DNA of 64,000 nucleotides from Patescibacteria group bacterium (GTDB lineage Bacteria; Patescibacteriota; Minisyncoccia; Phycocordibacterales; JBBTRF01), in NCBI GenBank assembly GCA_038065315.1, contig JBBTRF010000001.1, positions 161,642-225,641 on the forward strand. Direction: 5' to 3'. Positions 1 through 62,945 of the stretch are shown piece after piece. The notes beneath the pieces are model-generated. The model searched no databases. It had not been told where the DNA came from and was given only the letters and a program-made list of their open reading frames with translations. Positions within the stretch are counted from its first letter, which is position 1. Every line of letters begins with the position of its first letter. The position numbers and the translations under genes were made by a program.

Positions 1-483
1 GTGAGCTCCTCTAATGCCTATTGGCACTACGGGAACGTGACCACGAACAGCATAGCGTGCGACGCCAGTGAAGGCAGGGAGCATGTTTTCCTTGTCCGGT
101 GACCGGGTACCTTCTGGGAAAATACCAATCATTTTTGCCTCACGAAGATGCTCAAATATGCGATTATGCAGGACTCTCTTATCGTGCACTTTTCTGTCCA
201 CTCGAATCTGGCGAGTAATCTTCATGATTGGCGACCAGAATAAATGATCGAAAAACTTTTCAGCCGAAAGAAAGTGTACGTTTCTATTTGAAACGCTCAC
301 GAAACAAAGGAAGTCGAAATAACTCTGGTGATTAAAAGCAACAATCACTGGGCCAGCTTTCGGTATATTATCAATTCCGACCACCTTTTTTATCCATATA
401 GCTTTGACAACGAATCCGACAGACTTTCGAATGCACCAATATAGGAAGTCGTGAATTTTATCGGAAACAGATCTAGAGCCCAT
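1..483 (-). CDS. 1-acyl-sn-glycerol-3-phosphate acyltransferase family protein (PlsC-like); N-terminal part only, gene runs off window start
   Basis: Hand translation of the minus strand from ATG at 483 gives MGSRSVSDKIHDFLYW...KAGPVIVAFNHQSYFDFLCF... and ...GIFPEGTRSPDK, i.e. the HX4D (NHQSYFD) and FPEGTR motifs of lysophospholipid acyltransferases. No stop codon before position 1, so it is absent from the ORF track. Confidence 0.6.
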   Translation of the reverse strand, partial: MGSRSVSDKIHDFLYWCIRKSVGFVVKAIWIKKVVGIDNIPKAGPVIVAFNHQSYFDFLCFVSVSNRNVHFLSAEKFFDHLFWSPIMKITRQIRVDRKVHDKRVLHNRIFEHLREAKMIGIFPEGTRSPDKENMLPAFTGVARYAVRGHVPVVPIGIRGAH

Positions 484-638
484 TGCGAGTATAAGTATAC
501 GCCCTGGGGCGTGAGATTCCAATTATCCGCAAGGTTACCGTCGGATTGCTTCTTGGCTGAGCATGACAGTTAGGGGTGCCTGTATTTTAGCACAAACTGT
601 CTTCTAGGGTTTTCTTACGAAACCCGACAGGGGGCAAG

Positions 639-667
639 TTGACAGAAGTCGCACAGTCTTGTATATT
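639..667 (+). promoter_or_regulatory. sigma70-like promoter TTGACA-N17-TATATT upstream of the 736..3553 operon
   Basis: TTGACA at 639-644, 17-nt spacer, TATATT at 662-667, about 70 nt upstream of the ATG at 736 in a divergent intergenic region. Confidence 0.45.
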
Positions 668-735
668 TTGTCGGTCGTTTGCTGTATCTGTTGATATGCA
701 ACAGCGACTAAAAGGTTTTTAAACGTCAAAAAACA

Positions 736-2001
736 ATGTCCGACACCTCTCAGGATTCAGTTACTAGCGCGAAAAAGTACTTTAATCAGTTCTTCAAAAA
801 AGAACTTTACGGCACATTCAAGAGTGAAGTCAATTTAATTCTCAGTCGTGGTTCTTGGAATGAAAATTCCATACGATTTCCGAAGTTCTTTAAAACATGC
901 ATCGACATATCGCTAGAAAAACACTGGACGGGCTATTCTGACTCGCTTGGACATCGCTATGCAGTATCTGCCCTACGAAAGCTCCTGTCCTCGCATTGTA
1001 ATTACTCGGAAGATCAGATCGCTCTGACTCTTGGCAACAGCGTCACGATCGGAATCGTCTTTCAACAACTGTCTAGACAATTAGTTGGAGCAAAAGTACT
1101 CACACTAACTCCATACTACCCACCGATCCTGAGGTCAATTCACAATCATTTCCCGGACACTGTTTTCATTTCCTCATTAGGAGAGGAGAATGACATAATT
1201 GCGGAAATAAGAAAATCTGTTCTGGACAATCGAGTAAAGATTCTATTTCTCACGAATTTCATTGGTGTGGAAGGTAGAATCTTTTCAGAAAGATACTGGA
1301 AAGAAATTTTGCAGATTTCCAAGGAGTTCAATCTATTTTTGATCATTGACGAAGGCCTTGCTTTTACAGAAACAAATTATCCGAGGGAAATTAACCAGGA
1401 AAATGTAGTAAGAATCGTGAGTGTTTCAAAGAAATACGGGGTTCCTGGAATGAAATTCGGCTTCATCCTAGCCGATAAAGTTTTCATGGAAAATTTCTAT
1501 GAATCCGCGTCGACGAACTATGGTGGACCATCTAGTTTATTATTCCTTCTAAGTGAGTTTCTGTATCTTTTTGAATACATACTTAAATCGGGGGGCGATG
1601 CAGAAAATGAATTTAGGGAGCTTTCGAGAAAGTACTCTCTTTCTGAGGATGAGATTGCGGCATTGTTTAGTGATTATAAATCGGTGGTCGAATTGAACGA
1701 AAGACACTTTTCCGAAAACCTGCAGGCCGTTCGTGACTGGTACAGAAAAAATTCGAATTTATTCGAGCAAATTTTTGACTTTGGGGGTATCAATATACTA
1801 TTTAAACCCGATATTTCCTGCTCGTGTCACGAGCTTTTCTTGAGGGCAATTCGAGGGTACAATGTATCCGTACTTCCAGGCAAGTGCCTCGGTGATACGT
1901 CTGATACCTTATTCAGAGTCACCCTTCTAGAGCAGAAGGGTGACCAAGAAGAAGCTCTCGAGCGTTTATCAAAAATTATTAGAGAGAATACTAAAGAATG
2001 A
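736..2001 (+). CDS. PLP-dependent aminotransferase class I/II family protein
   Basis: SVSKKYGVPGMKFGF matches the S-x-S-K-x-x-G-x-x-G-x-R-x-G PLP-lysine motif; IIDEGLAF matches the D-E-x-Y/F region; NFIGVEG resembles the NPTG region. Stop overlaps the next start (ATGA at 1998). Confidence 0.6.
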   Translation: MSDTSQDSVTSAKKYFNQFFKKELYGTFKSEVNLILSRGSWNENSIRFPKFFKTCIDISLEKHWTGYSDSLGHRYAVSALRKLLSSHCNYSEDQIALTLGNSVTIGIVFQQLSRQLVGAKVLTLTPYYPPILRSIHNHFPDTVFISSLGEENDIIAEIRKSVLDNRVKILFLTNFIGVEGRIFSERYWKEILQISKEFNLFLIIDEGLAFTETNYPREINQENVVRIVSVSKKYGVPGMKFGFILADKVFMENFYESASTNYGGPSSLLFLLSEFLYLFEYILKSGGDAENEFRELSRKYSLSEDEIAALFSDYKSVVELNERHFSENLQAVRDWYRKNSNLFEQIFDFGGINILFKPDISCSCHELFLRAIRGYNVSVLPGKCLGDTSDTLFRVTLLEQKGDQEEALERLSKIIRENTKE

Positions 2002-2780
2002 AAAGGGACATCAAGGTTGTGTTCATAGATTTTGACGGAACACTTACAAACCAGGCAACAAACGAATTGACTGAAAAGCCTGACGAGCTTATTGATTCAC
2101 TGAAAAAGGCGGGTGCCGTGCCAGTTATTTCAACAGGAAAAGGGCTATATTTTATATATGACCTATTGGCCAATAAGCCCCGTTTGCTCGATGGTTATTT
2201 CATTCTTCACGACGGAGCCTTAGTATTGAATCCTTTCACTGGAGATATACTGCACTCTAATATTATGAGTGCGGAGATTGTTGGTGGTCTACTCGAAAAA
2301 CTGACAGCTATCACTCAAAATACATACCTGAATAAAGCAACCGGACTTTTCTCTGAACACAATTTACTTTCGAAAGACTCATCACTCTTTAAGTTTTGGA
2401 ATAAAACTCTGGATCATGAGGGAGTGTACCAGGTGTATGTTCGAGATATCCAGGAGTCACTGGTGACCACCATCAAGGACCTTGCAGATCACTTCGACCT
2501 AGAAATGTACTCATTCGCTAGTCGTCGTAATAGTAGAAGTTTAATGATTCACAACCGAACGAGTAATAAGGCTTGCGCGATAAAAAAAGTACTAGACAGA
2601 GGCGGATGGACCGAAAAAGAAGCGGCTGTGATTGGTGACGGAGTTAATGATCTACCTGCCTTTATGCTAGATGTATTTAAAATTGCCGCTAGTGATGCAA
2701 TTCCTGAGCTTAAGAACAAAGCGGATTTGGTGTTAGAAGTTGGTGAAAGAATTGATTCAACGATACTGAAACTCATATGA
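1998..2780 (+). CDS. HAD-superfamily hydrolase, subfamily IIB (Cof-like phosphatase)
   Basis: N-terminal FIDFDGTL (DxDGT motif I) and C-terminal GDGVNDLPAF (motif IV); length typical of the Cof family; ATGA overlap couples it to genes on both sides. Confidence 0.7.
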   Translation: MKRDIKVVFIDFDGTLTNQATNELTEKPDELIDSLKKAGAVPVISTGKGLYFIYDLLANKPRLLDGYFILHDGALVLNPFTGDILHSNIMSAEIVGGLLEKLTAITQNTYLNKATGLFSEHNLLSKDSSLFKFWNKTLDHEGVYQVYVRDIQESLVTTIKDLADHFDLEMYSFASRRNSRSLMIHNRTSNKACAIKKVLDRGGWTEKEAAVIGDGVNDLPAFMLDVFKIAASDAIPELKNKADLVLEVGERIDSTILKLI

Positions 2781-3553
2781 GATACAACCATGTTTTTCCA
2801 TCTCTAAAAATGCTACCCCTAGAACCAAAAGACGACCTTGTCTCGGTCTTGGAAAGGGACGGGGTTGTCCTGCTGAATGTCGGTGAAAGCTTTTCCAATA
2901 AAAGTTTTCTGGAACTAATGTGCAAAATCGGCACACCACTCAAAGAGTCGAACGTGGACGCTGCATATGTTGAAGACCTCTTTATTTTAAATGTCAGAAC
3001 CGACATTGATTCGAATATCTCGATGGAAAACGAGCCCTTCTCCATCGACGGGCTAAGAATGCATGTTGAAAGAGCCTTTGCTAATCAGACTGTACAACCA
3101 AACTTTATTGCCCTGCTGTGCAAGGTTTGTCCAGTGGATGAAAATGGAGGGCAGACGCTTATTTATAGAATGAGTGACTTCGTCAAGTGCTTTAGTGCGA
3201 ATGAATTGATGTTGATGAGAAAGATGTATCCAGTCTCAATGGACAGAAAAATTATTTCTGTGAATCCAATCTTGAGTTATGACCGAAGAAGAGGGTTTGA
3301 ATTTTTCTCGTACAGAGATTTAGGACAATATGGTAAGGATTGGCACGTTAAGGATGATCCCACCTTGAATGCACTGGATGTTTCCCTAGTCGCTAATAAA
3401 ATCGGTGAAGTTCTTGGAAGGCATGCCAACATCCGTGCCCTAGTATGGCGTCCTGGGTACCTATATATCTTCGATAATAAAAAAAGTTTTCATGGTAGGA
3501 CCGAACAAAAGCAGTCCCAGAAAAGACACCTCAAGAGAATTCGTGTTATTTAA
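2777..3553 (+). CDS. TauD/TfdA-like Fe(II)/2-oxoglutarate dioxygenase family protein (putative)
   Basis: MHVERAF (H-x-E/D metal dyad) followed by ALLCKVCPVDENGGQTLIY, which resembles the TauD PPxGGDTLFA segment; C-terminal FHGRTE resembles the distal His/Arg 2OG-binding motif. Start overlaps the upstream stop (ATGA). Confidence 0.45.
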   Translation: MRYNHVFPSLKMLPLEPKDDLVSVLERDGVVLLNVGESFSNKSFLELMCKIGTPLKESNVDAAYVEDLFILNVRTDIDSNISMENEPFSIDGLRMHVERAFANQTVQPNFIALLCKVCPVDENGGQTLIYRMSDFVKCFSANELMLMRKMYPVSMDRKIISVNPILSYDRRRGFEFFSYRDLGQYGKDWHVKDDPTLNALDVSLVANKIGEVLGRHANIRALVWRPGYLYIFDNKKSFHGRTEQKQSQKRHLKRIRVI

Positions 3554-3597
3554 AATACGCGCCCAAACTACTAGGGCGCGTATGGTTGGACGATAGA

Positions 3598-4671
3598 TTA
3601 AAATCGATTCGCTAATGAGGAAGCGAGTTGGGAAACAGTCAACGCCCTACCCTCTCTTAAGATGCGATGAGAGATTTGCTGTATGATGTTTTTCTGACGG
3701 TAGAGCATTGGCATCTCGGGGCCGAGTATTTCAATGTTTGCTCTCGGTGGCCCCGACAGTAGATGCTCAAGCTCGATGAGTCCTAGAGCCACCGAAGTTT
3801 TTTGAAGCTCTACTGATCTTAAACCCACTATTTGCGAATACTGATCAGCAAATGCGACAAGACCCTCTGTCAGCTTTTGTAGCCCGTTCCGATTAGCTGA
3901 CAGGAGTAGCCTCAACATGAACTTACCTAAGTCTACATGTGGAATACCTACGCACAGCTTCGGATCAAGAAGACAAACCGACTGGCCGTCGCGGATAATG
4001 TTACCGTCCTTACAGTCACCGTGCAGGAGATTCCTCATAGTCAAATGTGCTGAGACAAGCTCGACTATATTCGAATGAAGCCCTCTCGCAATCATTGGTT
4101 GCTGGAAATTCAAGTCCTCAATAATGAGTGAGTCTGAGGTCGCGCTTATCTGTCTAGGCTTGAGATTGTCCGGTGCCTCAGTTTGATGGAGGCGAGCAAT
4201 ACATTTTGCCAATCCTTCAGCGAACGACTTGTCAAAAGCACCTGGATCAATGCACTTCCCCGGGATTTTTTCGAGTATGACAACATTTGGTCCAACAAAC
4301 TCTAGAATTCTTGGGACCCGAAACGCTCTATCCCAAAGAAATCTGAGCGACCGAACCTCTATGACGATGTCGTTGCTGCATGGCATGTTGCCACCGTCAA
4401 GTGTCTTAGAAAAAACGCTCGGTCCAGCTGCTAAAAACTTTTCGTAGGCGAATAGCATGCTTCTTCCAAAAAGCCCTGCCTTCAAAATTGCCTCTCTGCC
4501 ATTAAAAGAGCATGTGAAGACGTAATTTACGTGACTAGAATCCACCATTCGCAGGTTGCGGACAAAAACCCCGTTCCTTTTGAGCAAGCCGACGAAGTAT
4601 TTGCTCACAATTGAGACAAACTGTCGTTGTGTTTTATTCACGGTTAGTCCTTTCGTAGGTTGTATTTTCAA
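3598..4671 (-). CDS. Phosphotransferase (APH/choline-kinase-like kinase fold) family protein
   Basis: LLHGDCKDGNIIRDGQSVCLLDPK fits the Brenner HGDxxxxN catalytic motif plus a downstream Asp; the size (357 aa) fits the family. Convergent with the 736..3553 operon. Confidence 0.5.
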   Translation of the reverse strand: MKIQPTKGLTVNKTQRQFVSIVSKYFVGLLKRNGVFVRNLRMVDSSHVNYVFTCSFNGREAILKAGLFGRSMLFAYEKFLAAGPSVFSKTLDGGNMPCSNDIVIEVRSLRFLWDRAFRVPRILEFVGPNVVILEKIPGKCIDPGAFDKSFAEGLAKCIARLHQTEAPDNLKPRQISATSDSLIIEDLNFQQPMIARGLHSNIVELVSAHLTMRNLLHGDCKDGNIIRDGQSVCLLDPKLCVGIPHVDLGKFMLRLLLSANRNGLQKLTEGLVAFADQYSQIVGLRSVELQKTSVALGLIELEHLLSGPPRANIEILGPEMPMLYRQKNIIQQISHRILREGRALTVSQLASSLANRF

Positions 4672-9948: not shown

Positions 9949-11106
9949 CTACATCCCCTCTTTTTTCAATTCTTCGATCGCTTTCTTGGCCGCCTTCGAG
10001 AGGTGTTTCGGCATTTCGATGGAGATCTTCACAAAAAGATCACCGCGGCGGTTTTTGCTCCCGCCGATCGGCACGCCGCGCCCCTTTACACGAAGTTGTT
10101 CGCTGTGAGTGATACCGGCCGGGATGCTGAGTTGGATATCGCCATCGAGCGTGGTAAATGTTTTCACTGCACCGAGAAGTGCTTCGGAAAGCTTAATACC
10201 GAGCGAGGCATGTAAGTCGGCGCCATCGCGCTCAAAAAGCGGGTGCGGCACGACGTGGATCTTCACGTAGAGATCGCCAGAAGAGCCGGTGCCGCCGCCA
10301 GCCAGTGTTTCGCCCTTGCCGGCCATGCGGAGCATCTCGCCGTCGTTGATGCCAGCCGGAATGACTACCTCGAGATTCTCCTGCCTGTCGTACACGCCTG
10401 CACCGCGGCAGATCTTGCATTTTTCCTTTGGTATCGTACCTTTCCCAGCACAGGTTGGGCAAGTGGCTGTGGTACTCACATTGCCGAGGAAGGTGCGGCG
10501 CACCTCTTGTACCTTGCCGCGTCCTTTGCAGGTGTCACAGGTCTCGATTTTTGTTCCCGGCTCGCCCCCTGTGCCATTGCAATGGTCGCATGCCGCAGTG
10601 CGACTAAAACGTAGCTCACGAATAGAGCCGAAGACAGCATCCTTGAACGGAATTTCGATATCGATCGACATATCGCGGCCCTTCTGACTGCGACCGCGGC
10701 CACCTCGTGCGCCTCCTGCCCCGCGCCCGCTTGAACCGCCAGTGCCGAAAATATCGCCAAAGATATCGCCAATGTCGAATTCGATGTTCTGCGAGCCACC
10801 GAAGCCTTGGGTGAATTGCGAAAAATCAAAGCCATCGAAACCACCGGCTTGGCCACTGAAGGGATTACCTCCTCCGCCGGAGCCTCCACCAAAACCTGGG
10901 CCCGACGAACCAAATCGGTCGTATTGTGCACGCTTCGCATCGTCCGACAAGGTCGAATACGCCTCATTTGCTTCTTTGAAGCGCGCCTCGTTGCCACCCT
11001 TCTTGTCTGGGTGATGTTCATGCGCGAGCTTACGGAACGCCTGCTTGATCTCGTCTTTCGAGGCACTCTTTTCGACTCCGAGTGTTTTGTAATAGTCTTT
11101 TGACAT
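9949..11106 (-). CDS. dnaJ: Chaperone DnaJ (J domain, G/F-rich region, 4x CxxCxGxG zinc finger, C-terminal domains)
   Basis: MSKDYYKTLGV...HHPDK J-domain; Gly/Phe-rich segment; CDHCNGTG, CDTCKGRG, CPTCAGKG, CKICRGAG repeats. Start chosen at the internal Met with a DnaJ-typical N-terminus (ATG at 11106); the ORF track starts 8 codons earlier. Confidence 0.9.
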   Translation of the reverse strand: MSKDYYKTLGVEKSASKDEIKQAFRKLAHEHHPDKKGGNEARFKEANEAYSTLSDDAKRAQYDRFGSSGPGFGGGSGGGGNPFSGQAGGFDGFDFSQFTQGFGGSQNIEFDIGDIFGDIFGTGGSSGRGAGGARGGRGRSQKGRDMSIDIEIPFKDAVFGSIRELRFSRTAACDHCNGTGGEPGTKIETCDTCKGRGKVQEVRRTFLGNVSTTATCPTCAGKGTIPKEKCKICRGAGVYDRQENLEVVIPAGINDGEMLRMAGKGETLAGGGTGSSGDLYVKIHVVPHPLFERDGADLHASLGIKLSEALLGAVKTFTTLDGDIQLSIPAGITHSEQLRVKGRGVPIGGSKNRRGDLFVKISIEMPKHLSKAAKKAIEELKKEGM

Positions 11107-11199
11107 TTTAGATTTTTTGAACCTTGACACTATACCATACGGTGTGTAACTATTCTATTCAGTCAGTTGTTTTAGAGGGTTGGCTTCAGAAAGGAAGCC

Positions 11200-11529
11200 G
11201 TGGTGTCCCGAACAATACACCTAGCATCGTTAATCATGATCGTCATCTTGAAAGACCGGAGACTTTTCGCCATCCAGTGCCTCGTCTCAATTGCAATCAT
11301 GCTGAGCGCATATCTCGAGCCGAGGTATTTTGCGATAACCTTTGGCGCTTGGTTCCTGTTCTGCCTGCTGATTCTGCTCGTTTACACAATCAGCACGCCT
11401 GCCGAAGACCTGTTGGGGCTCAAGCATGAGATGCAATTCATCGTGCTGTTTGGCACCCCGATAATCATCCTCGGAATCACGAAGGCTCTTTTTACCATAA
11501 GGCGAACGGACGCCGCACCTAAGACCTGA
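11200..11529 (+). CDS. Small multi-pass membrane protein, hypothetical
   Basis: 109-aa ORF with three hydrophobic helices, in the divergent gap between dnaJ and dnaK, followed by a hairpin plus T-run. Confidence 0.35.
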   Translation: MVSRTIHLASLIMIVILKDRRLFAIQCLVSIAIMLSAYLEPRYFAITFGAWFLFCLLILLVYTISTPAEDLLGLKHEMQFIVLFGTPIIILGITKALFTIRRTDAAPKT

Positions 11530-11544
11530 TCGCGTTATCTACCT

Positions 11545-11625
11545 CACTCCCCTCCTCCATTATCTCCACGACTCAGTCTTTGTACTAGGTCATGGAGAGT
11601 AGGAAGAGGGGGGTTTTTTTATTTT
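11545..11625 (+). terminator. Putative rho-independent terminator (G/C-rich imperfect hairpin followed by GGGGGGTTTTTTTATTTT)
   Basis: CTCCCCTCCTCC...GGAGAGTAGGAAGAGGGGGG followed by a T7 run, immediately downstream of the 11200..11529 ORF. Confidence 0.35.
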
Positions 11626-11669
11626 CTGATTTTCAGGAGCCTAGTGGAGAGGTGTCTGCGGCCATTTTT

Positions 11670-11730
11670 GAGTAGGTGCGGATTTATCATACTTTTCTCA
11701 TACTTTCGTATGAAAAATCCGATACTACTC
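11670..11730. repeat. Palindromic intergenic element, copy 1 (GAGTAGGTGCGGATTTATCATAC...GTATGAAAAATCCG...TACTC), just downstream of dnaK
   Basis: Shares inverted arms CGGATTT(T/A)TCATAC / GTATGAAAAATCCG and internal TTTTCTCATAC units with the copies at 14191-14249 and 62817-62887. Confidence 0.6.
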
Positions 11731-11760
11731 TTTTTCGCTGCGCCACCCCGGCTGCTTCAG

Positions 11761-13698
11761 CTATTTCTTCTCCCCATCTTTACCGCCTTCCTTGAACTCC
11801 GCATCGCGGACTGGGCCGTCAGCATCTTTCTTGTCGCCCTGCGCAGTGTCGGCCCTTGAGGCCTCGCCGTTTGCTCCGGCGCCTGCCGCGCCCGCACCAG
11901 CCTTGCTCATCGCCTCGCCAACTTTGGAGAGCTCGGTCGAGAGAGCTTCGGTTGCGCTCCTGATCTTCGCAAGATCAGCACCATCTTTCACCTGCTTGAG
12001 GTCAGCGGTCTTGTCCTCGACACCCTTGCGGACATCAGCAGGCACTTTATCGCCCGCATCCTTGAGCGCCTTCTCGCTGGTGTAGATCATCTGCTCGGCG
12101 ACATTTTTTGCCTCGACTGCCTCACGCTTCTTCTGGTCGTCAGCACTGTGCATTTCCGCATCCTTCTGCATCTTCGCGACCTCTTCCTTGCTCAGGCCGG
12201 AGCTTGCGGTAATCTTGATCGAGTTCGACTTGCCGGTGGTCTTGTCCTTGGCAGTCACATTCAAGATACCATTGGCATCGATGTCAAAAGACACCTCCAC
12301 CTGCGGCATACCGCGAGGAGCCGGTGGAATACCGTCGAGAGTGAACTTGCCGAGCGACTTGTTGTCCGCCGCCATAGCACGCTCGCCCTGAGTGATGTGG
12401 ATTTCCACAGAGGTTTGATTGTCCGCCGCGGTCGAGAACACCTGAGACTTCTGTGTCGGGATAGTAGTGTTCTTCTCGATGAGCTTCGTCGCGACGCCAC
12501 CCATAGTTTCAATGCCGAATGAAAGTGGGATCACGTCGAGCAAGAGCACGTCCTTCACGTCGCCGGCGAGAATACCGCCCTGAATAGCGGCACCGATCGC
12601 CACGACTTCGTCTGGGTTCACTCCCATGTGGAGCTCCTTTCCGAAGAAGGCCTTCACCGCTGCGAGCATGGCTGGCATACGAGTCTGCCCACCCACCATC
12701 ACCACTTCGTTGATATCGGCCACCTTGAACGGCGATGCTTCCATCGCACGCTTGGTGATCATCATTGCTCGATCGATGAATTCTCGAGTGAGAACCTCGA
12801 GCGTTGATCGGGTCATAGTCTTCACGAGGTGCTTCGGGCCGTCACTGCCAGATGAGATGAACGGAATGTTGATCTCGGTCTGCACCGCGGTGGAGAGCTC
12901 GATCTTGGCCTTTTCTGCGGCCTCGTCGAGTCGCTGCACTGCCAAGGGATCCCTCATGAGGTCGATACCGTTTTCCTTCTTGAAATCATCCGCGAGCCAT
13001 TTGATGATCTTCTGGTCGATGTCTTTTCCGCCCAAGTGCGCGTCACCGTCGGTGGACTTCACCTCCACGAGGTCGGCGCCCACTTCGAGCACGGAGATGT
13101 CGAAGGTACCGCCTCCGAAGTCGAAGACGACGATCTTTTCATCCTTCTTTTTGTTGAAGCCGTATGCGAGGGCGGCTGCGGTCGGCTCGTTGATGATACG
13201 CATCACTTCGAGGCCGGCGATCTTGCCTGCGTCCTTGGTGGCCTGTCGCTGTGCGTCGTTGAAGTATGCCGGGACGGTGATGACGGCCTGAGTCACCTTC
13301 TCGCCGAGTCGCGCTTCCGCGTCGGTCTTGAGTTTGGTGAGGATCATGGCCGAGATCTCCTCCGGTCGGAGCCATTTGTCGGCCATTTTCACTTCCACAC
13401 CACCGTTCGCAGACTTCTGCACTTCAAAAGGCACCGATGCCTTGTCTTTTTGCACCGCGTCTTCGTCAAATGTGTGTCCGATGAAGCGCTTGATCTGGAA
13501 GACGGTGTTCTTTGGGTTGGTGACAGCTTGTCGCCGCGCAAGGAGGCCGACGAGTCGGTCGCCGGTCTTTGATTGAGCGACAATAGATGGAGTGGTGCGC
13601 GCACCCTCGGCATTTTCGAGGATCTTCGGGCTGCCCGCTTCCATCACCGCGACTGCTGAGTTGGTGGTACCGAGGTCGATACCGATGATTTTTGACAT
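11761..13698 (-). CDS. dnaK: Chaperone DnaK (Hsp70)
   Basis: [30 protein letters not shown] and the EEVD-less C-terminus; 645 aa, full-length Hsp70. Confidence 0.95.
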
Positions 13699-13772
13699 GG
13701 GTTAATTTGCGTTAAAAACGTGATAAAGGATTTCTAAAATCCGAATGAACGGGGTGTGAAATCGAATTCAGC

Positions 13773-14153
13773 TTAAAACGCAAAGGACGGCGCGCGGGTC
13801 GGTTGGCTTTTGAGGATCGCCTTGATGGCGAGATGTGGATAGACGACAGACTCGAGCTGGAGAGATTTTACAAATTCAAAGACAGCAAGCTCGACAGGTG
13901 CTGGGAGTGCTTGGACAGCAGCTGTATTTGACGCACCGGAAACAACATCACCAAAGGCAAAGGCTTCAGCTGCCTCGATCGGGGTGGCAGAAAGGAGTTT
14001 TACGCGTACCTGACCCTGATACTCCACCACCAAAAATCGGGCACGAACAAAGCCGCCAGCCCGTGTTTTCAGGACTTTTTCGATGATATTTTGCTGTGGA
14101 GCGAGGGTCAACATCGGACTGCTATTATACCAGAAATATGGAGGAGTCAACAT
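13773..14153 (-). CDS. Hypothetical protein between grpE and dnaK
   Basis: 126-aa ORF in the operon position where some bacteria carry a small regulator; no recognisable motif; the true start may be the internal Met at about 14114. Confidence 0.35.
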   Translation of the reverse strand: MLTPPYFWYNSSPMLTLAPQQNIIEKVLKTRAGGFVRARFLVVEYQGQVRVKLLSATPIEAAEAFAFGDVVSGASNTAAVQALPAPVELAVFEFVKSLQLESVVYPHLAIKAILKSQPTRAPSFAF

Positions 14154-14190
14154 ATTCGACTGAACAGAAGGTTGGTGGTGCAGCGGAAAA

Positions 14191-14249
14191 GAGTACCTTC
14201 GGATTTTTCATACAAAGTATGAGAAAGTATGAAAAATCCGCACCTACTC
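14191..14249. repeat. Palindromic intergenic element, copy 2 (GAGTACCTTCGGATTTTTCATACAAAGTATGAGAAAGTATGAAAAATCCGCACCTACTC), downstream of grpE
   Basis: Near-perfect inverted repeat; its right arm is the exact reverse complement of copy 1's left arm. Confidence 0.6.
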
Positions 14250-14308
14250 AAAAACACTGACGGACACCCCACCCCTCGCACTACGAACTACACCTTTGTG
14301 ACAAGAGA

Positions 14309-14932
14309 TTACTTCTTCACCTCCCCCACCTTCACCTTCGGCGGACGGACCACGCGGTCGCCGAGCTTGTATCCTTTGTTGATGACAGCGACAACTTTGC
14401 CATCCTGTGATTTTTCGTCTACCTCCACCATCTCTATCGCCTCCTGCTCGAGCGGGCTGTAGTCGGCGCCGAGGGGGTTGAGTTCGGAGAGGCCGTTTTT
14501 CTGCAAGATACCTAGGATCTGCGCCTGAATATGCTCGACGCCCATGCGCCAATTCTTGTCCACCTTTTCCCAAGCCTCTTTGTTGGCACGAGCCATGTCG
14601 AAGCTGTCGAGCACTGGCAAGATGTCGAGGATGAGCTCCTCGTTCGCGTACTTCACGAGCTCCTTCTGGCGCTCCTCGTCGCGCTTGCGCGCATTTACCA
14701 TGTCGGCCTTGGTGCGCTGCCAGCCAGTGAGATAGTCGAGCTTCTCGGCTTCACACTTCTTGAGCTTGTCGCGCAAGTCTTTCAGCTTGGCCTGGGAGCC
14801 CTTCTCGATGCCTTCTTCGTTGGTGTCCACTACATCATCTGTATCGCCAGAATTTGCGTCTGCCTTGCCAGCAGCCGTCGGCTCAAAAGTTACATCATCC
14901 TGATCGTTTTTCATATTTTTAGTGTCGTCCAT
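14309..14932 (-). CDS. grpE: Nucleotide exchange factor GrpE
   Basis: Acidic N-terminus, long coiled-coil region, and C-terminal ...MVEVDEKSQDGKVVAVINKGYKLGDRVVRPPKVKV typical of the GrpE beta-domain. Confidence 0.85.
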   Translation of the reverse strand: MDDTKNMKNDQDDVTFEPTAAGKADANSGDTDDVVDTNEEGIEKGSQAKLKDLRDKLKKCEAEKLDYLTGWQRTKADMVNARKRDEERQKELVKYANEELILDILPVLDSFDMARANKEAWEKVDKNWRMGVEHIQAQILGILQKNGLSELNPLGADYSPLEQEAIEMVEVDEKSQDGKVVAVINKGYKLGDRVVRPPKVKVGEVKK

Positions 14933-15176: not shown

Positions 15177-15381
15177 GGCAGGTACAGTATAGCAATTGAT
15201 AAGACAGACTCATACATATATACTTATACAAATGGACAAGAAACTTCGTCGGCGTTGGGACAATCAGGTGAAGCAAGCCCTAAAAAGGGTCGGCTATTCG
15301 AGCGGTAAATTAGCCCTGAAGGATCTCTAGAAAACACCGCAAGGAAGTCTTTCGGCGTGGAGGAATCGAACGAAATATGTA

Positions 15382-15491
15382 GGCAAAACAAAACAGCATT
15401 CTGAGGGAACTGCGGAGGCCGTCGGGCCGAGCCGGAGCGAAAAGCTAGCGAGCTTTTATGCGTATCCCTCAGAATGCGTTTTTGTTTTGCC
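15382..15491. repeat. Long inverted repeat (about 27-bp arms, 56-nt spacer) downstream of rpsI; candidate terminator or MITE-like palindrome
   Basis: GGCAAAACAAAACAGCATTCTGAGGGA ... TCCCTCAGAATGCGTTTTTGTTTTGCC; arms complementary with 1-2 mismatches. Confidence 0.5.
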
Positions 15492-15500
15492 TGCTTATAA

Positions 15501-15923
15501 CTATCGCTTGCTCCAAGCCGGAGACTTTCGTGCCTTCTTCAAACCGAACTTTCGTCGCTCCTTCGCTCGAGGATCTCGCTTCAAAAAGCCTTCCTTCTTG
15601 AGAGAACCACGGAGTGCGATATCGTGCTGAATCAACGCTCGTGCAATGCCGTGTCGGAGTGCCTCGGCCTGAGAGTGGATACCGCCGCCGCTCAACATCG
15701 CAGTGACCTTGAACTTCTCGGCTGACTTTGCCAAAGCGTCCATGGCGATCTGCTGGAGCTCAGCGGTCGGGAAATACGTATTCAAATCCTTCTCGTTCAA
15801 AGTGAAAGAGGTCTTCGCTGAAGGAGTGATGCGGACGCTCGCAATAGAGGTCTTGCGTCGGCCGATGCCCTGGGTGTACTTTTTGTCTGAAGTTGAAGTG
15901 TTGGATGTCATGGAGATATACAA
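15501..15923 (-). CDS. rpsI: 30S ribosomal protein S9
   Basis: C-terminal GGGIHSQAEALRHGIARALIQ...RDPRAKERRKFGLKKARKSPAWSKR is the S9 signature. Confidence 0.9.
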   Translation of the reverse strand: MYISMTSNTSTSDKKYTQGIGRRKTSIASVRITPSAKTSFTLNEKDLNTYFPTAELQQIAMDALAKSAEKFKVTAMLSGGGIHSQAEALRHGIARALIQHDIALRGSLKKEGFLKRDPRAKERRKFGLKKARKSPAWSKR

Positions 15924-17712: not shown

Positions 17713-18330
17713 TTATCGCTTGTAGAATTCCAGGATGGCTCCGATATCGAACTGTGTCTCGCCAACTGCAAACTTCGGCATTCCAACGATCTCGGCTCGT
17801 TTCTTCTCCGACTCGCTCTTGATCCAATTGACCGCCGGCGCATTCTTCATCTTCTCCGCTGCCTGCTCGAACAGCTTCTTCTTTTGGCTACCATCACGGA
17901 TGGTGATCGCATCCTTCTCAGAGATGGTGTACGAAGGGATGGTGACCCGGGTGCCGTTCACCAAAATGTGGCCGTGAGAAACCATCTGTCGCGCGAGGAG
18001 TCGAGAGTTGGCCAAGCCAAGGCGGTACACGACATTGTCGAGACGAGTTTCGAGCGCCCGGAAGAGTGCTTCGTCTGGGTGGAGCTTGGTCTGTGCAATC
18101 GCCTTTCGGACGTAGTTGCGGAACTGCTTCTCCATCACGCCGTAGGTAAATCGGGCCTTCTGCTTCTCGATGAGCTGGGTACCGAACTCGCTCTTTGGGC
18201 GAGGCTTCTTTTTGCCGTCCTTGCCACCACTTCGTCGGGCGACAGATGCAGCAAATTTAGCCGTCTGTGTTTTGTCGAACACTGCGGCTCCCAGTCGTCG
18301 TGCAATCTTGTACTTTGGACCAATTTTCAT
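17713..18330 (-). CDS. rpsD: 30S ribosomal protein S4
   Basis: RLDNVVYRLGLANSRLLARQMVSHGHILVNG S4 domain; 205 aa. Confidence 0.9.
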   Translation of the reverse strand: MKIGPKYKIARRLGAAVFDKTQTAKFAASVARRSGGKDGKKKPRPKSEFGTQLIEKQKARFTYGVMEKQFRNYVRKAIAQTKLHPDEALFRALETRLDNVVYRLGLANSRLLARQMVSHGHILVNGTRVTIPSYTISEKDAITIRDGSQKKKLFEQAAEKMKNAPAVNWIKSESEKKRAEIVGMPKFAVGETQFDIGAILEFYKR

Positions 18331-18351
18331 GTGAGTACGTGATGATTAATA

Positions 18352-18798
18352 TTAAACGCGTCGTGGTTTCTTTGGCTTCGGACCGTTGTGAGGCACCGGA
18401 GTCACGTCTTTAATAGAGGTGATGGTGAAACCCTTTGATACAAATCCTCGAACGGCTGATTCTCGGCCAGAACCAACGCCCTTCACGATGACTGCCACTT
18501 CCTTGAGACCAAGGAGAGCTGCCTTTGCAGCCAAGGTCTCGCCCACTTTTGCTGCAGCAAAAGGAGTGCCCTTCTTTGCACCCTTGAAACCGAGAGATCC
18601 CGCTGATGACCAAAATACGGCGTTACCCTTTGGATCAGCAAACACCACTTTGGTGTTGTTGTAGGTAGACTGCACGTACAAAATGCCGCTGTCGAGCTTG
18701 AGCTTCGAGGCCTTTGAAGGTGCCGCCGCGACTACCTTCTCCGCTGGAGCGGCGGCCTTGTCGGTCTTCTTTACTTCTGTGTTCTTTGGGGTTGCCAT
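18352..18798 (-). CDS. rpsK: 30S ribosomal protein S11
   Basis: YVQSTYNNTKVVFADPKGNAVFWSSAG...PHNGPKPKKPRRV S11 signature. Confidence 0.9.
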   Translation of the reverse strand: MATPKNTEVKKTDKAAAPAEKVVAAAPSKASKLKLDSGILYVQSTYNNTKVVFADPKGNAVFWSSAGSLGFKGAKKGTPFAAAKVGETLAAKAALLGLKEVAVIVKGVGSGRESAVRGFVSKGFTITSIKDVTPVPHNGPKPKKPRRV

Positions 18799-18827
18799 AT
18801 AAATGTATGTCGGTTATTTCTTTAGGA

Positions 18828-19208
18828 TTACTTCTTCTCAACGGCCTTTCGTCCGGAACCCATGGTCTTGCGAACGTTGCCTCGAACAGTTCGAGAGTTG
18901 GTCTTGGTGCGCTGGCCGTGCACTGGGAGTCGGCGGAGGTGTCGGATGCCTCGGTACGCCTTGATGTCCTTCAAGCGCTTTACGTTGCCCGCGACCTCTC
19001 GCTTGAGGTCTCCTTCGATCTTGTAATCCTCGATCATCTTGCGGATCTCATTCTCTTCGTCTACAGTAAGGTCTTTCGCCTTCTTGGCAAAATCAACATT
19101 CGCTCGGGTCAAAATAGTGTGAGCGAGTGGACGGCCAATGCCGAAGACTGCCGTGAGAGCAATCTCGATTCGCTTGTCGTCTGGAATGGTGATACCTGAG
19201 ATACGCAT
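18828..19208 (-). CDS. rpsM: 30S ribosomal protein S13
   Basis: MRISGITIPDDKRIEIALTAVFGIGRPLAHTIL; C-terminal RTNSRTVRG...RK. Confidence 0.9.
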   Translation of the reverse strand: MRISGITIPDDKRIEIALTAVFGIGRPLAHTILTRANVDFAKKAKDLTVDEENEIRKMIEDYKIEGDLKREVAGNVKRLKDIKAYRGIRHLRRLPVHGQRTKTNSRTVRGNVRKTMGSGRKAVEKK

Positions 19209-19654: not shown

Positions 19655-20911
19655 CTACAGCTCTGGTTCTACGACGGTAATACGGGCGACGTCATCTGGG
19701 AACGTGCTCCGCCAGAATGGTCGAACTACCGCCTTCATCGGGGTGACTTCGCTGAAATTCGCCATGATTTCCTTGAACTGAGCCGTTTTCTGAGATACCA
19801 GAGCGGCTGAGATGTTAGCAGCATTATAGAGCCACACGAAGCTCGCCGTGCCAGAAACCGCCAATTTCACCGGGTCACGATCGAAGACCCCTATCGACAT
19901 GTTCTGCGGGACGATTTCAAGACCTTCAAGCGTCGATAGGTCAATTGGTTTTTCATCGTAGCCATTCAATTGCTTCGTCGCGACAGCCATGGCGAGCGCC
20001 TTTCGTTCCATCACCAGTCCAGTAAGCACTACCTTCTGCGTCAAAATAACAGTATCGGTATCTTTGTTCTGATTCGGCAGCTGCTCGACATTAAACAGTG
20101 TCGCTCGATCGAAGAAAGCATAGCCAGCGGGAGTCTGCGCTGCAGCAGATGTTAGGAGACGAGCCTTGAGGTCAGCAATCATCGAATCACGAGCCGCCTT
20201 TTCATCGGCAGGCTTCACCACCCGAACTACCCCCTTGCTACCTCCGGTCATAGCTGTTTTTGAACGCGCGTAGATATTTTTATACTTGGTCGGACTGGTT
20301 TTAAATCCTGGAATAGTAAAGTCTGTGAGGCCGATGTTGTAATCGGAACCTGCAGTGTCGGCATAGACCGTGACCTCAATACTTCCGGGCACTGTTCCCT
20401 TCTTTCCTGGAACAGTGACCGGCTCAGAGATTCGGTAGATCAATCCTTCTGGTGTTTGGAAACGGGTATTACGAATGAGGCGCTGGGTGGATGCACTGTC
20501 ATTATTGTAGATCACTATCTGACCCGATGCTTTTTTCTCCTCCATGCGCGTACCCTGTGCAAGCACTTCTTTTTGGAGTTGATCTGAGAGTGTGACAAGC
20601 TGATATTGCAGATCGGAACCCTTCACTGAAGCAGTCTTGCTGGCCAACAGCGTGGTATTTACCGCCACTTTCTGACTAAGTGGAAGGACGGTGATAGTGG
20701 CACCAATAAAAAACGTGGAGACAACATAGAAAAGCACGCCGATACAGACGACGACCAGTGCCCAAAGAATACTGCGACGGATTTTTGCATGCGAATCATG
20801 GCCAGTATCGTTTCCACCTCCGCGCGCAGACGGTGAGCGGAGTGAAGCAGGGATAATCCGAATACTTCGTCGTTCTGAAGGTCGCACATCATTGATAATA
20901 GGCCTCGACAT
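19655..20911 (-). CDS. Membrane-anchored hypothetical protein (Arg-rich cytoplasmic N-terminus, one TM, about 340-aa extracytoplasmic domain)
   Basis: ILWALVVVCIGVLFYVVSTFFIGA TM helix; no recognisable catalytic motif; start placed at the ATG at 20911 (MSRPIINDVRP). Confidence 0.45.
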   Translation of the reverse strand: MSRPIINDVRPSERRSIRIIPASLRSPSARGGGNDTGHDSHAKIRRSILWALVVVCIGVLFYVVSTFFIGATITVLPLSQKVAVNTTLLASKTASVKGSDLQYQLVTLSDQLQKEVLAQGTRMEEKKASGQIVIYNNDSASTQRLIRNTRFQTPEGLIYRISEPVTVPGKKGTVPGSIEVTVYADTAGSDYNIGLTDFTIPGFKTSPTKYKNIYARSKTAMTGGSKGVVRVVKPADEKAARDSMIADLKARLLTSAAAQTPAGYAFFDRATLFNVEQLPNQNKDTDTVILTQKVVLTGLVMERKALAMAVATKQLNGYDEKPIDLSTLEGLEIVPQNMSIGVFDRDPVKLAVSGTASFVWLYNAANISAALVSQKTAQFKEIMANFSEVTPMKAVVRPFWRSTFPDDVARITVVEPEL

Positions 20912-49865: not shown

Positions 49866-50167
49866 TCCCTAATCCATATATCATCATTAATGAAATTACC
49901 ACTATCATCCACATAGCCTTTATTCTTAAGACCGATCATAATTAATTCTGGTGATAAAGTAGACTTATCGAAAAATTTGATATCCTCCTCCTTTTCCTCT
50001 CTGCATTCTTTCTGAAGAGTAAGTTTTAAATTCACTAGATTTTCACCATCTTGCTTTTCAATCATATATTTTTGTTTACTAACTTCTGTAGAATAATAGA
50101 AACCACCCAATATACATGCTGCAATTATAATTCTCCAAGATACTGGTAGTTTATTTAATTTATTCAT
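49832..50167 (-). CDS. Small secreted/lipoprotein-like hypothetical (island)
   Basis: Signal segment with a lipobox-like IAAC; Glu/Lys-rich mature region. Confidence 0.4.
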   Translation of the reverse strand: MNKLNKLPVSWRIIIAACILGGFYYSTEVSKQKYMIEKQDGENLVNLKLTLQKECREEKEEDIKFFDKSTLSPELIMIGLKNKGYVDDSGNFINDDIWIRDCVERKLEIIK

Positions 50168-50295
50168 AGGAATTTTAGTTATTTAATACATGCCCTCTTA
50201 AACATTTTTCATAACTAGACTTATCTAACGTTGTTAGCCTATCAGTATCAGATCCTCTGAGAGTATTCGGGGGTAATTTTATACATTTAGTTTAA

Positions 50296-50796
50296 TTATA
50301 CGGCAGTTTGTTGTTTATGGTCCTGTTCTTCTTCATCTTTATTAACAAAATACTGTCCAAGTATTCTACTTCCGTACGTTGTTATCATTCCTACACATAA
50401 CCAGAAGAGGACGGTCCAAGATCCGTCAAATGCTGTGGCCAGTAATGACAAAGGTAGTATTCCTATTCCTGCAAACAATAAACCTACTACAACCCAAAAA
50501 CCTCCCCAAATGATGTATGTAAACAACAGTGCCCTTAACCAGAGTTCCAAACCAAAAATATAAGAAGATATATACATTCCTAGTCCTGAATATCCACGAG
50601 TTTTTCTAACAAAACAAAGGGGCAGAAGAACGAGTAAGTTTACGAAGAAAAGAAAGCCAGAGATTATTTGTACTATGGGTAAGACTGTTGCGGTAAACCA
50701 AATTGCCCCCTTGAAAACTAGACCGATAATGAGACCGAATGCAACAATTATAACTACTCCCAACAAACCCGAAGACCATTCTTTTATTTTACTCAT
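50296..50796 (-). CDS. Multi-pass membrane protein, hypothetical (island)
   Basis: Five hydrophobic helices; start taken at MSKIKEWSSG. Confidence 0.45.
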   Translation of the reverse strand: MSKIKEWSSGLLGVVIIVAFGLIIGLVFKGAIWFTATVLPIVQIISGFLFFVNLLVLLPLCFVRKTRGYSGLGMYISSYIFGLELWLRALLFTYIIWGGFWVVVGLLFAGIGILPLSLLATAFDGSWTVLFWLCVGMITTYGSRILGQYFVNKDEEEQDHKQQTAV

Positions 50797-50797
50797 A

Positions 50798-51106
50798 TTA
50801 TTTTTTATTAGTTTTAATAAATAAGGACACAAAGAACAAAACCGCCCCGGTTACATCGAAAATCTGCCACATATCTTTTGAGAAATAAAATGGGAATATG
50901 GGGTTAAATAGTATCGCTAGAGCAATAAACAGCCACATAAAAACGGTCTTATGATTTTCAAAGTAACTAAAAGCAAGATAGGCACTGCAGATTGTTGTTA
51001 ACCAACGAGTTAGCTGATAGTAGGAGTATGGGTGGTCTCCTAATGCCCCAAGCAATGTCCCAAATGCGATTATCTTAAACCAATTTCCTTTGAGAGAGTT
51101 CTTCAT
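50798..51106 (-). CDS. Small three-TM membrane protein, hypothetical (island)
   Basis: 102 aa; tightly abuts the downstream membrane gene (stop/start 50796/50798). Confidence 0.45.
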   Translation of the reverse strand: MKNSLKGNWFKIIAFGTLLGALGDHPYSYYQLTRWLTTICSAYLAFSYFENHKTVFMWLFIALAILFNPIFPFYFSKDMWQIFDVTGAVLFFVSLFIKTNKK

Positions 51107-51288
51107 ATAAAAGTTATATTTATGCTAATTTTACTCCACAAACCATAACCATACAATCAAGATTAAATTATGCAACAAAAAATCTGCTTACGAAGCTACG
51201 TTCTGCAATAAATCCCGCAACTTTTGAAAGTTTGAATCGCTCAAATCCTTCCTTAATTTTTTCTTTTGTCCATACATCATTCATATAT

Positions 51289-51807
51289 TTAAAAATTGCC
51301 TTCCATTATCTTTATTATTCTTTTTAGTATTGGCATGTTTGGAATGACAGCATCAAGAACACTCCTTGAAAAAAGTCTCTTACAGTCCCCATCAGTTAGA
51401 CTCCTTCTTCCGTTCAGGTGGTTACTCTGAAAGGACCGTTTACAGTCTGATGAAGATCGGTTTGCGTGATTTGTGGCTGGTTCGAGAACGGTCAAAAGCA
51501 GTCCTTCAATACAAGGACTGCTTCCAACCAATTCAAAACCCTTAACTTTTGCTTTATTTTTTACAGGACTTGTCCATTCACGATCTGTATCTAGCAATAT
51601 GAAAGAGTGGTTATATTTCAGATTACCTTTTACACGTAGCGCTTTTTCCAGAATGTATGACACATCTTTTCCTCCAGCATAATCTACTCTTACGCTGGTT
51701 TTGTTTACCGCATACAGCGATCGAATGTGCTTTAGGAAGATTCTTTCAGCTTCTCCCTCTCCAAAAGCAAACACTGTGGTTTTCTGTGCCCTAAGAGTTC
51801 TTGCCAT
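51289..51807 (-). CDS. DUF4276/RloB-like (TOPRIM-like) small protein; putative nuclease partner of the upstream ATPase
   Basis: TVFAFGEGEAERIFLKHIRSLY matches the family's h-h-h-EG-x-x-E-x-x-F N-terminal motif; ILLDTD matches the TOPRIM DxD. Start set at MARTLRAQK (51807), 4 nt after the ATPase stop; the ORF track's longer start would overlap by 70 nt. Confidence 0.5.
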   Translation of the reverse strand: MARTLRAQKTTVFAFGEGEAERIFLKHIRSLYAVNKTSVRVDYAGGKDVSYILEKALRVKGNLKYNHSFILLDTDREWTSPVKNKAKVKGFELVGSSPCIEGLLLTVLEPATNHANRSSSDCKRSFQSNHLNGRRSLTDGDCKRLFSRSVLDAVIPNMPILKRIIKIMEGNF

Positions 51808-51811
51808 AATT

Positions 51812-53002: not shown

Positions 53003-53175
53003 GTGTTTGTTAGTACATTAATTACATTGTTATCCTAGCAGATTTAAGCACACTTTGCAAGCTTTTATACAAAATATTGTTTAAAATAGTTTAAAACATC
53101 CTATTTTAAGGCATTTTTGGCTAGATAAGATCTTTGTTCGGGAGCGATAAGGTGGATGTGCTGAGGCACATCCAC

Positions 53176-53532: not shown

Positions 53533-53579
53533 AAATTGTGATTATTTAATATCATCTAAAAAATCTTTGATTTTATCAT

Positions 53580-62657: not shown

Positions 62658-62816
62658 ATAAACGTATGCGCCAATTGCCCCGTGGTCTGGCCATGGGGGT
62701 TGGTACGACCGCCACACTATATCACGCAGGCAGGCGCGGTGGCAAGAAATGTGAGAATAGGTGCGCAAAGAGAGCCCCAAAGAAGCGACGGCGAGGGTGG
62801 GTGGCGAAGCAAAAAA

Positions 62817-62887
62817 GAGTAGGGCGGATTTTTCATACTTTTTCATACATCTTCATACAAAGTATGAAAAATCCGCAGGTACTCGAA
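62817..62887. repeat. Palindromic intergenic element, copy 3 (GAGTAGGGCGGATTTTTCATACTTTTTCATACATCTTCATACAAAGTATGAAAAATCCGCAGGTACTC), upstream of uvrA
   Basis: Same arms as copies 1 and 2, with three TTCATAC units in the centre. Confidence 0.6.
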
Positions 62888-62945
62888 ATTGGCGGCGGAC
62901 ACCTCCCCTCAGCCTGCCTTCGGTCAATTCGGACACTGCCGACCC

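Follow-up and report, generated by a model that had tools for sequence, protein, structure and literature searches.

A dispersed intergenic hairpin repeat, probably of the REP/MITE type, in a narrow clade of Patescibacteria

The 64,000-nucleotide stretch of DNA analysed here (positions 161,642 to 225,641 of contig JBBTRF010000001.1, assembly GCA_038065315.1, from a Patescibacteria group bacterium; hereafter, the window) carries three copies of a long, interrupted palindrome, located next to dnaK, grpE and uvrA, that belong to a family of repeats found in a narrow, Paceibacteria-like clade of ultra-small Patescibacteria from groundwater. The family is multi-copy and intergenic, its hairpin is maintained, its sequence is conserved above the neutral level, its copies are gained and lost between relatives, and it includes rearranged derivatives. 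The interpretation that we consider probable, while leaving appreciable room for doubt, is that of a non-coding, dispersed hairpin repeat similar to repetitive extragenic palindromic (REP) sequences, REP doublets forming hairpins (REPINs) and miniature inverted-repeat transposable elements (MITEs).

Anatomy of the element

The window copies were located by direct reading, by alignment of the three copies to one another, with a repeat finder and by searches with the flanks (Table 1). The 14-nt arm CGGATTTTTCATAC has six matches in the window at two or fewer mismatches, against 0.55 expected, and all six are the paired arms of the three elements; none of 100 shuffled sequences reaches this number. 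The 9-mer TTTTCATAC also occurs six times in the window, never outside the elements. The full element is oriented and about 105-115 nt long, with a 60-70 bp interrupted palindrome set between two unlike, conserved flanks. On the T-rich strand, flank a reads GGGG(A/T)GGTGTCCGCC..TGTTTTT, the core GAGTA-N4-CGGATTTTTCATAC-(units)-GTATGAAAAATCCG-N4-TACTC, and flank b TTTTTCGCTGCGCCACCCC; the N4 of the core is usually a GG/GG mismatch (CC/CC on the other strand). The two inverted arms of 23 nt, separated by a spacer of 13-33 nt, are not themselves palindromic, and the whole can also be read as a long REP singlet. The centre holds one or two extra inner 10-mers in either orientation, for a total of three or four units, never two, spaced every 10-11 bp. 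Folding of both strands yields a single extended hairpin (-36 to -48 kcal/mol, z -4.0 to -6.5), in which the interior loops, U5xU5 or A5xA5, are conserved. The element combines terminal inverted repeats with a small size and no coding capacity, all of them characteristic of MITEs.

A preliminary description of the window had listed three palindromes of 60-70 bp, and direct reading finds all three in the places given for them. The core boundaries of copies 1 and 2 stand, the core of copy 3 ends at 62884 rather than 62887, and the length quoted is that of the palindromic core and not of the whole, oriented element. The right arm of copy 2, which had been said to be the exact reverse complement of the left arm of copy 1, agrees with it at 22 of 23 positions (TTTAT vs TTTTT). 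The gene context that had been named, dnaK, grpE, an MGMT-like gene and uvrA, was borne out by Pfam.

Copy 1 lies 11 nt past the dnaK stop codon, and its A-rich strand is the one carried by the dnaK mRNA. Copy 2 starts 32 nt past the grpE stop codon, is followed by UUUU after the hairpin on the grpE transcript, and sits immediately 5' of the promoter of orf113 and dnaK. Copy 3 starts about 36 nt past the stop codon of the MGMT-like gene, has U6 after the hairpin, and leaves 50 nt between its end and the uvrA -35 box downstream. This copy had been placed between the MGMT-like gene and the start of uvrA; the spacer is the right one, but the true start of uvrA is the ATG near 62656 (MKKDEKN, kept in relatives), so that copy 3 lies upstream of the intervening uvrA promoter and not at the start codon, and a 988-amino-acid (aa) uvrA call that reaches into copy 3 is an artefact. 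Two gene calls over the copies are spurious, one being a 71-aa open reading frame (ORF) and the other an extra 32 residues at the N-terminus of uvrA; gene callers are misled by the element.

Three other readings of the repeated sequence were rejected: a small peptide, for which the alpha flank of copy 1 offers GTG...TAG, since copy 3 does not keep the frame; an array of tandem interspaced guide RNAs (TIGR), because the copies are dispersed single elements with three to four ten-nt units; and a DNA-uptake sequence, since the elements contain every occurrence of the 9-mer.

Table 1. Copies and sites of the repeat family, and neighbouring features of the window
Feature	Position	Strand	Remarks
Copy 1, whole element	11643..11749	T-rich strand +	orthologues in L037, L036, L047, L048/L010
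Copy 1, alpha flank	11643-11669		AGTGGAGAGGTGTCTGCGGCCATTTTT
Copy 1, core	11670-11730
Copy 1, beta' flank	11731-11749		TTTTTCGCTGCGCCACCCC
Copy 2, whole element	14174..14276	T-rich strand -	core 14191-14249
Copy 3, whole element	62795..62909	T-rich strand -	core 62817-62884, four 10-nt units; orthologues in L043, L044, L045, L046
Mini-palindrome GGATTT-CTA-AAATCC	13728..13742		orf113-dnaK spacer; inside larger inverted repeat TTTGCGTTTTAA / TTAACGCAAA
Second dnaK-dnaJ spacer hairpin	11548..11615	-	CCUCC.ACUCUCC.UGAC ... GUCG.GGAGA.AAUGGAGG; not of the repeat family
orf113-dnaK promoter	14124..14150	-	TTGACT, 15-nt spacer, TGGTATAAT; ATG 9 nt past -10 box
uvrA promoter-like site	62716..62745	-	TTGCCA-18-TATAGT, TG extension; downstream of copy 3
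dnaJ	9949-11106	-	Pfam-confirmed
dnaK	11761-13698	-	Pfam-confirmed
grpE	14309-14932	-	Pfam-confirmed
ogt	62946-63266	-	MGMT-type DNA_binding_1 protein, 103-106 aa; uvrA next
Site dnaK/dnaJ			window, L037, L036, L047, L048/L010
Site grpE/orf113-dnaK			window only
Site ogt/uvrA			window/L043, L044, L045, L046
Site uvrA 3' end			L044
Site upstream of desaturase gene (uvrA/desaturase)			L045
Site secY/adk			L020, L034
Site pyrG/sigma factor			L002
Site upstream of rpsL			L017
Site upstream of uvrB			L030
Unannotated site			L014

Distribution, conservation and turnover among relatives

DnaK and UvrA homologues put the source genome within the Patescibacteria, near Paceibacteria/Taylorbacteria-type genomes, and a DnaK identical to that of the window is encoded in Hainich groundwater contigs (0.1 um fraction) and in the metagenome-assembled genome (MAG) GCA_964355935.1. 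GTDB species representatives and metagenome contigs were scanned with a one-arm 19-mer, and a profile search with nhmmer covered the scan loci as well as the regions around dnaK and uvrA in a graded series of relatives (loci and relatives are denoted by L numbers). The one-arm scans returned mostly single arms expected by chance, along with eight true full elements. In total, 17 copies were recovered from nine distinct intergenic sites in at least five related genomes, none of them inside a real gene; the copies come from the source MAG, GCA_974945995.1, GCA_964602975.1, ERZ4222710, Ga0172367/76, and Hainich H41 and Ga0007787 contigs. The source genome was covered for 82 kb, that is, the window and 18 kb beyond its ends, and holds three copies, with none in the 18 kb outside the window. 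No copy was found in 42 kb of L039 (DnaK 93% identical) and L041 (DnaK 87%). The element serves as a lineage marker for this groundwater clade.

Among the candidates discarded on the way, five of the six single matches in the GTDB scan are due to chance (L001, L004 and L006 as read directly, L003 and L005 as arms without a partner), the sixth, L002, being true; a partner arm accompanies eight of the 26 metagenome loci, and the rest are chance matches, including L025, with two same-strand matches in a coding repeat. The DnaK and UvrA of GCA_964602975.1 (L002/L045/L047) are, respectively, about 95-97% and 93% identical to those of the window genome, and the label of this assembly, 'uncultured Candidatus Saccharibacteria bacterium', looks doubtful, given that the other relatives are labelled as Paceibacteria/Taylorbacteria-type.

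The hairpin is maintained by paired changes. In the alignment of 17 copies, pairing in the inner 15-bp helix reaches 95.7%, and in five pairs both sides have changed (for example, TTTTGCATAC/GTATGCAAAA, TTTGTCATAC/GTATGACAAA and GCATCC/GGATGC), and no shuffle or slid register approaches this degree of pairing; the first two N4 positions are mostly unpaired. The orthologous element between dnaK and dnaJ is 72-84% identical to the window copy in clade relatives, compared to 52-63% for the four-fold sites of dnaK in the same comparison, and the internal loops and flanks are conserved in sequence as well. This excess of identity over the four-fold sites is not explained by a constraint on the stem alone, which implies a sequence-specific partner.

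Against this background of conservation, presence or absence of the element differs between relatives at three or more orthologous sites, as is typical of MITEs. The grpE copy is absent in L037 (DnaK 97% identical), where the promoter TTGACT..TGGTATAAT lies within 8 nt of the grpE stop codon; the uvrB copy is present in L030 and absent in L046, in which the uvrB promoter is kept; and the copy at the 3' end of uvrA is found in L044 and is absent in the window, L045 and L046. The centre is inverted between the orthologous secY/adk copies of L020 and L034, and four copies (L002, L044a, L045b and L046) have the a-palindrome-a^c form, with flank a on both sides. The arm variants tend to be genome-specific: TTTTG is found in all three copies sampled from GCA_974945995.1, and GACAAA in three of the four copies from GCA_964602975.1.

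The copies occupy a characteristic position, with 12 of the 14 that have an identifiable upstream gene starting 6-36 nt past its stop codon. T-oriented copies, with U4-6 after the hairpin, close the grpE, ogt and uvrA units, and window copies 2 and 3 are then followed by a promoter. A-oriented copies lie inside the dnaK-dnaJ and secY-adk pairs and upstream of uvrB and rpsL; these copies and the a-palindrome-a^c forms lack a U-tract after the stem. In most copies, T5 flanks the core on both sides as part of the conserved flanks, and in four copies a T-run and an A-run are found.

Origin and function of the repeat

So which of the known classes of repeats does this family resemble? REPINs consist of a-palindrome-b units with variable spacers and give a-palindrome-a^c excision products; the A/T-run flanks of REPs suggest co-option for attenuation, and each repeat family is specific to its REP-associated tyrosine transposase (RAYT) (PMC3337134). 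Like REP and REPIN sequences (PMC3337134, PMC3116915), the element is extragenic, multi-copy and lineage-specific, and is an imperfect palindrome whose 5' (a) and 3' (b) flanks differ, with a variable spacer, A/T-run flanks, symmetric a-palindrome-a^c derivatives and genome-specific variants. Unlike them, it has a centre with extra phased 10-mers that flip, and its copy number is apparently modest, against the tens to hundreds of copies per genome usual for REP families.

Other bacterial lineages harbour MITE-like intergenic palindromes, namely ERIC/IRU (about 127 bp) in Enterobacteria, Correia/NEMIS in Neisseria and RUP in Streptococcus. The element is comparable to them in its length of about 100-130 nt, in being an imperfect palindrome as a whole, in its occurrence in transcribed spacers in either orientation, in its presence or absence between relatives and in forming long RNA hairpins able to affect termination or stability; it is not known to share sequence similarity with any of them. 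Relative to the genomic background it is far more conserved than decaying MITEs would be, and no defined target-site duplication or parent insertion sequence (IS) was found; in the DNA examined, there is no autonomous IS with the same termini.

Under the REP-like interpretation, a trans-acting protein with sequence specificity would have spread or homogenised the family by way of the hairpin that it forms as a single strand, and the likeliest candidate for this protein would be a RAYT-type Y1 transposase, a class common in Patescibacteria. When transcribed, the interrupted stem of about 50 bp would form a 3'-end hairpin that could terminate or attenuate transcription where U4-6 trails the stem, that is, at the 3' ends of grpE, ogt and uvrA, whereas in the A orientation inside the dnaK-dnaJ and secY-adk operons it would be read through and might stabilise the transcript or be processed.

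RAYT homologues number more than 2000 at E<1e-10 and are mostly from Patescibacteria. In the sister lineage L041, a RAYT gene (Y1_Tnp, 'REP element-mobilizing transposase RayT' according to JGI; 18281-19000, 178 aa, with the HUH motif) is flanked by a different REP hairpin, CTTGGAGG-N5-CCTCCAAG (also written CAACTTGGAGG-N5-CCTCCAAGTTG). This REP occurs five times in 20 kb, with copies at 11945-11965 and 19867-19887, and one occurrence, about 35 nt past the dnaK stop codon, takes the niche that the element studied here holds in its own clade. One copy of this REP lies inside the RAYT ORF region, and given that the protein is also shorter than its homologues of 215-220 aa, the gene may be disrupted. 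A tblastn search with the L041 RAYT produced no match in the window or at any of the loci, and a scan of viral contigs with a degenerate two-arm pattern produced none either.

Several observations weigh against the assignment of the family to mobile, REP-like repeats. No Y1_Tnp/RAYT or other transposase was found in the source genome, over the 82 kb covered, or in the four other element-carrying genomes of the clade, over about 150 kb, and among the best 120 of the more than 2000 RAYT homologues, none is on the clade's long contigs. The palindrome measures 60-70 bp compared to about 20-40 bp for a REP, and, in contrast to the members of a REP doublet, the 23-nt arms are not palindromes in their own right. 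Comparison of filled and empty sites gives no exact insertion boundary or clean target-site duplication, because the spacers are too diverged. The density, about one copy per 20-27 kb, refers to DNA sampled around known copies. Furthermore, the dnaK/dnaJ and ogt/uvrA sites are stably occupied throughout the clade, with strong sequence conservation, which also fits host cis-regulation, and a scan with a simple terminator consensus did not call the elements.

Alternatively, the element might be a cis-regulatory DNA site, an operator or activator array, that co-ordinates grpE, dnaK and dnaJ with uvrA, uvrB and ogt in a lineage without HrcA and the controlling inverted repeat of chaperone expression (CIRCE), in which case both the phased hexamers GTATGA/TCATAC and the half-sites GGATTTTT/AAAAATCC would be recognised by a protein. 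We consider this unlikely, notwithstanding a number of facts that speak for it. Chaperone or excision-repair genes adjoin all three copies found in the 82 kb of source-genome DNA, for which the nominal chance is about 0.001 (a rough estimate from ~10 of ~85 spacers, with the 'stress' category set after the copies had been seen), and L030 has another copy upstream of its uvrB promoter. The hexamer units are phased at 10-11 bp; the dnaK/dnaJ and ogt/uvrA orthologues are conserved above the synonymous-site rate; primary sequence, and not pairing alone, is constrained; a related mini-palindrome is kept upstream of dnaK; and known heat-shock and SOS operators are not found near the stress genes. 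As the preliminary description had it, the dnaK operon lacks a CIRCE site, none occurring in the window at three or fewer mismatches, and there is no HrcA domain among its gene calls. The comparison that it had proposed with CIRCE, the HspR-associated inverted repeat (HAIR) and the ROSE thermometer yielded no consensus site near these genes, the matches to HAIR, the CtsR box and the Gram-positive LexA box being at chance level and away from them. In Rfam 15, which includes ROSE and fourU, only a tRNA reaches the gathering score, and the matches within 11000-14400 at E<=5 are far below the cut-offs; a SNORD60 match (E=0.72) and miRNA-like matches were dismissed as chance. The mid-window genes are ordinary housekeeping genes with no adjoining copy and no transposase, HrcA or LexA among them.

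What makes the operator hard to accept is the placement of the copies. They also occur at secY/adk, pyrG/sigma factor, uvrA/desaturase and upstream of rpsL, and are lacking at uvrC and the hsp20 gene; of the five independent sites that came from the pattern scan, only one (uvrB) is stress-related. The conserved, predicted promoters of the dnaK operon in L037 and of uvrB in L046 have no neighbouring element, the -35 box is not at a constant distance (copy 2 is about 20-25 nt from it and copy 3 about 50 nt), a conserved copy is found downstream of dnaK, and orientation, number of units and polarity of the centre all vary. The element does resemble the CIRCE/HrcA, HAIR/HspR, CtsR, LexA, ROSE and fourU systems in being palindromic or built of repeats and in adjoining grpE, dnaK, dnaJ, uvrA and uvrB, but it is 5-8 times longer than the CIRCE, HAIR, CtsR and LexA operators and the thermometers, its size and extended hairpin are atypical of an operator, and, unlike heat-shock and SOS operators, it has no fixed position relative to promoters or starts and is also found at housekeeping loci. 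A more general version, which we likewise hold to have a small chance of being correct, is that the family is not selfish at all and represents a clade-specific regulatory or architectural module, in which one protein reads the DNA or RNA site and links the chaperone and excision-repair units; the mini-palindrome upstream of dnaK would then be its minimal form. If a regulatory reading were true, Patescibacteria without HrcA/CIRCE and canonical LexA-box systems would possess a stress regulon under a new regulator. The preliminary description had left the choice between an operator for a stress regulator and a REP/MITE-like element; the latter, with terminator character, is the better supported of the two.

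Could the copies be nothing more than ordinary intrinsic terminators or 3'-end hairpins, alike by common descent and selection for stem stability, without mobility or a dedicated protein? The stable stems, the start of most copies shortly past stop codons, and the U4-U6 that comes right after the stem in T-oriented copies, followed by promoters, all agree with this possibility. Nevertheless, it appears improbable: near-identical 100-nt sequences at unrelated loci exclude convergence, the A-oriented copies lie within operons with an A-run after the stem, the a-palindrome-a^c forms have no U-tract on either strand, the internal loops and flanks are conserved in sequence, and close relatives differ in the presence of the element. 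Equally improbable is a cis-acting structured RNA module, selected as RNA and copied between transcripts, which could serve in processing (by RNase III or otherwise) or in stability, or act as an AU-rich stem that responds to temperature. Such a module would account for the strong folding in both orientations, the pairing kept through paired changes, the location in transcribed operon spacers (dnaK-dnaJ and secY-adk), the AU-rich 14-bp core stem, and the alpha flank, with GGAGGTG and CACCTCC on its two strands, which in the dnaK-dnaJ spacer borders on a second hairpin that is also conserved. However, there is no Rfam match, the use of both orientations makes the RNAs differ in their loops (U5xU5 vs A5xA5, GG/GG vs CC/CC), the GGAGG motifs are too distant from start codons to be ribosome-binding sites, and the observed pairing does not distinguish between RNA and single-stranded DNA as the level of selection.

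Genomes of the candidate phyla radiation are about 1 Mb in size, dense and usually described as repeat-poor. If the REP-like interpretation of the family is correct, even minimal genomes retain elements of the REP/REPIN type, probably together with partners of the RAYT type, and these elements may supply transcript-end structures there. For a genome of this repeat-poor type, conservation far above that of synonymous sites, combined with a hairpin kept by paired changes and a place in the first 6-36 nt past stop codons, is worthy of note.

Other hairpins, promoters and variable DNA near the copies

The mini-palindrome that the preliminary description had noted upstream of dnaK is real, and four relatives of the clade (L037, L036, L047 and L048) keep a version of it, upstream of dnaK by about 30-45 nt; it takes the form GGATTTTT(T)GAAAAATCC in three of these and GGATTTTTTAAAAGTCC, with one arm mismatch, in L048. 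It could be a remnant of the repeat family, left by excision or deletion of the centre, or an unrelated hairpin of the 5' untranslated region. The nested repeat around it, TTTGCGTTTTAA ... TTAACGCAAA (13700-13772, minus strand), ends 8 nt before the dnaK ATG and is kept in L037 and L036; it may be a translational-control hairpin for dnaK.

The second hairpin of the dnaK-dnaJ spacer, at 11548-11615, differs between the window and L010/L037 (L010 2690-2768; L037 12075-12140) by a compensatory change, A-U to G-C, and abuts the alpha' flank of the family in relatives. In the window it is followed by G6-T7 on the plus strand and thus also looks like a terminator of an antisense 108-aa ORF. This ORF (11203-11529, plus strand), which is antisense to the dnaK-dnaJ operon and has no Pfam match, is an insertion in the spacer found only in the window genome, the spacer being no longer than about 230 nt in the relatives L037 and L048. 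The dnaJ gene has a -10-like box of its own, TGGTATAGT, near 11130-11145. Another long hairpin, unrelated to the family and with 80% complementarity between its 56-nt arms, occupies 15353-15520, where rpsI is on one side and a small GIY-YIG ORF, itself upstream of grpE, on the other; it has no Rfam match and is kept downstream of rpsI in relatives (L037 8560-8713, L047 5789-5917). Its centre is also found between secY and the element in L020 (1242-1312) and L034 (1477-1515), so it may represent a second dispersed family.

The gene that precedes dnaK (13773-14114, minus strand) is conserved, encodes about 101-113 aa with no Pfam family, and holds the same place in L036, L037, L039, L041, L047 and L048. 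Its promoter is kept in L037 and L036, where no element adjoins it. Promoters in this lineage hug the start codons, with TGGTATAAT 9 nt before the orf113 ATG (14112-14150, minus strand) and TATAAT 11 nt before the uvrB ATG (L030 ~1925-1975, L046 ~1290-1325), a closeness that suggests near-leaderless mRNAs.

Variable DNA adjoins some of the sites. Upstream of ogt-uvrA (L043 1-9600, L044 900-9400, L046 4500-9300), wholly different DNA is found between close relatives; the genes that fill it, for restriction-modification, MutH, HEPN, Fic and LexA-methylase fusions, make up a defence or variable island next to the conserved element. The grpE/orf113 spacer has received gene insertions too, in L036, L047 and L048. 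Elsewhere in the window, G+C content is low (36-43% vs about 51%) at 1-4000 and 50000-54000, and the latter segment adjoins a tRNA gene (54404-54476) and so may be acquired DNA.

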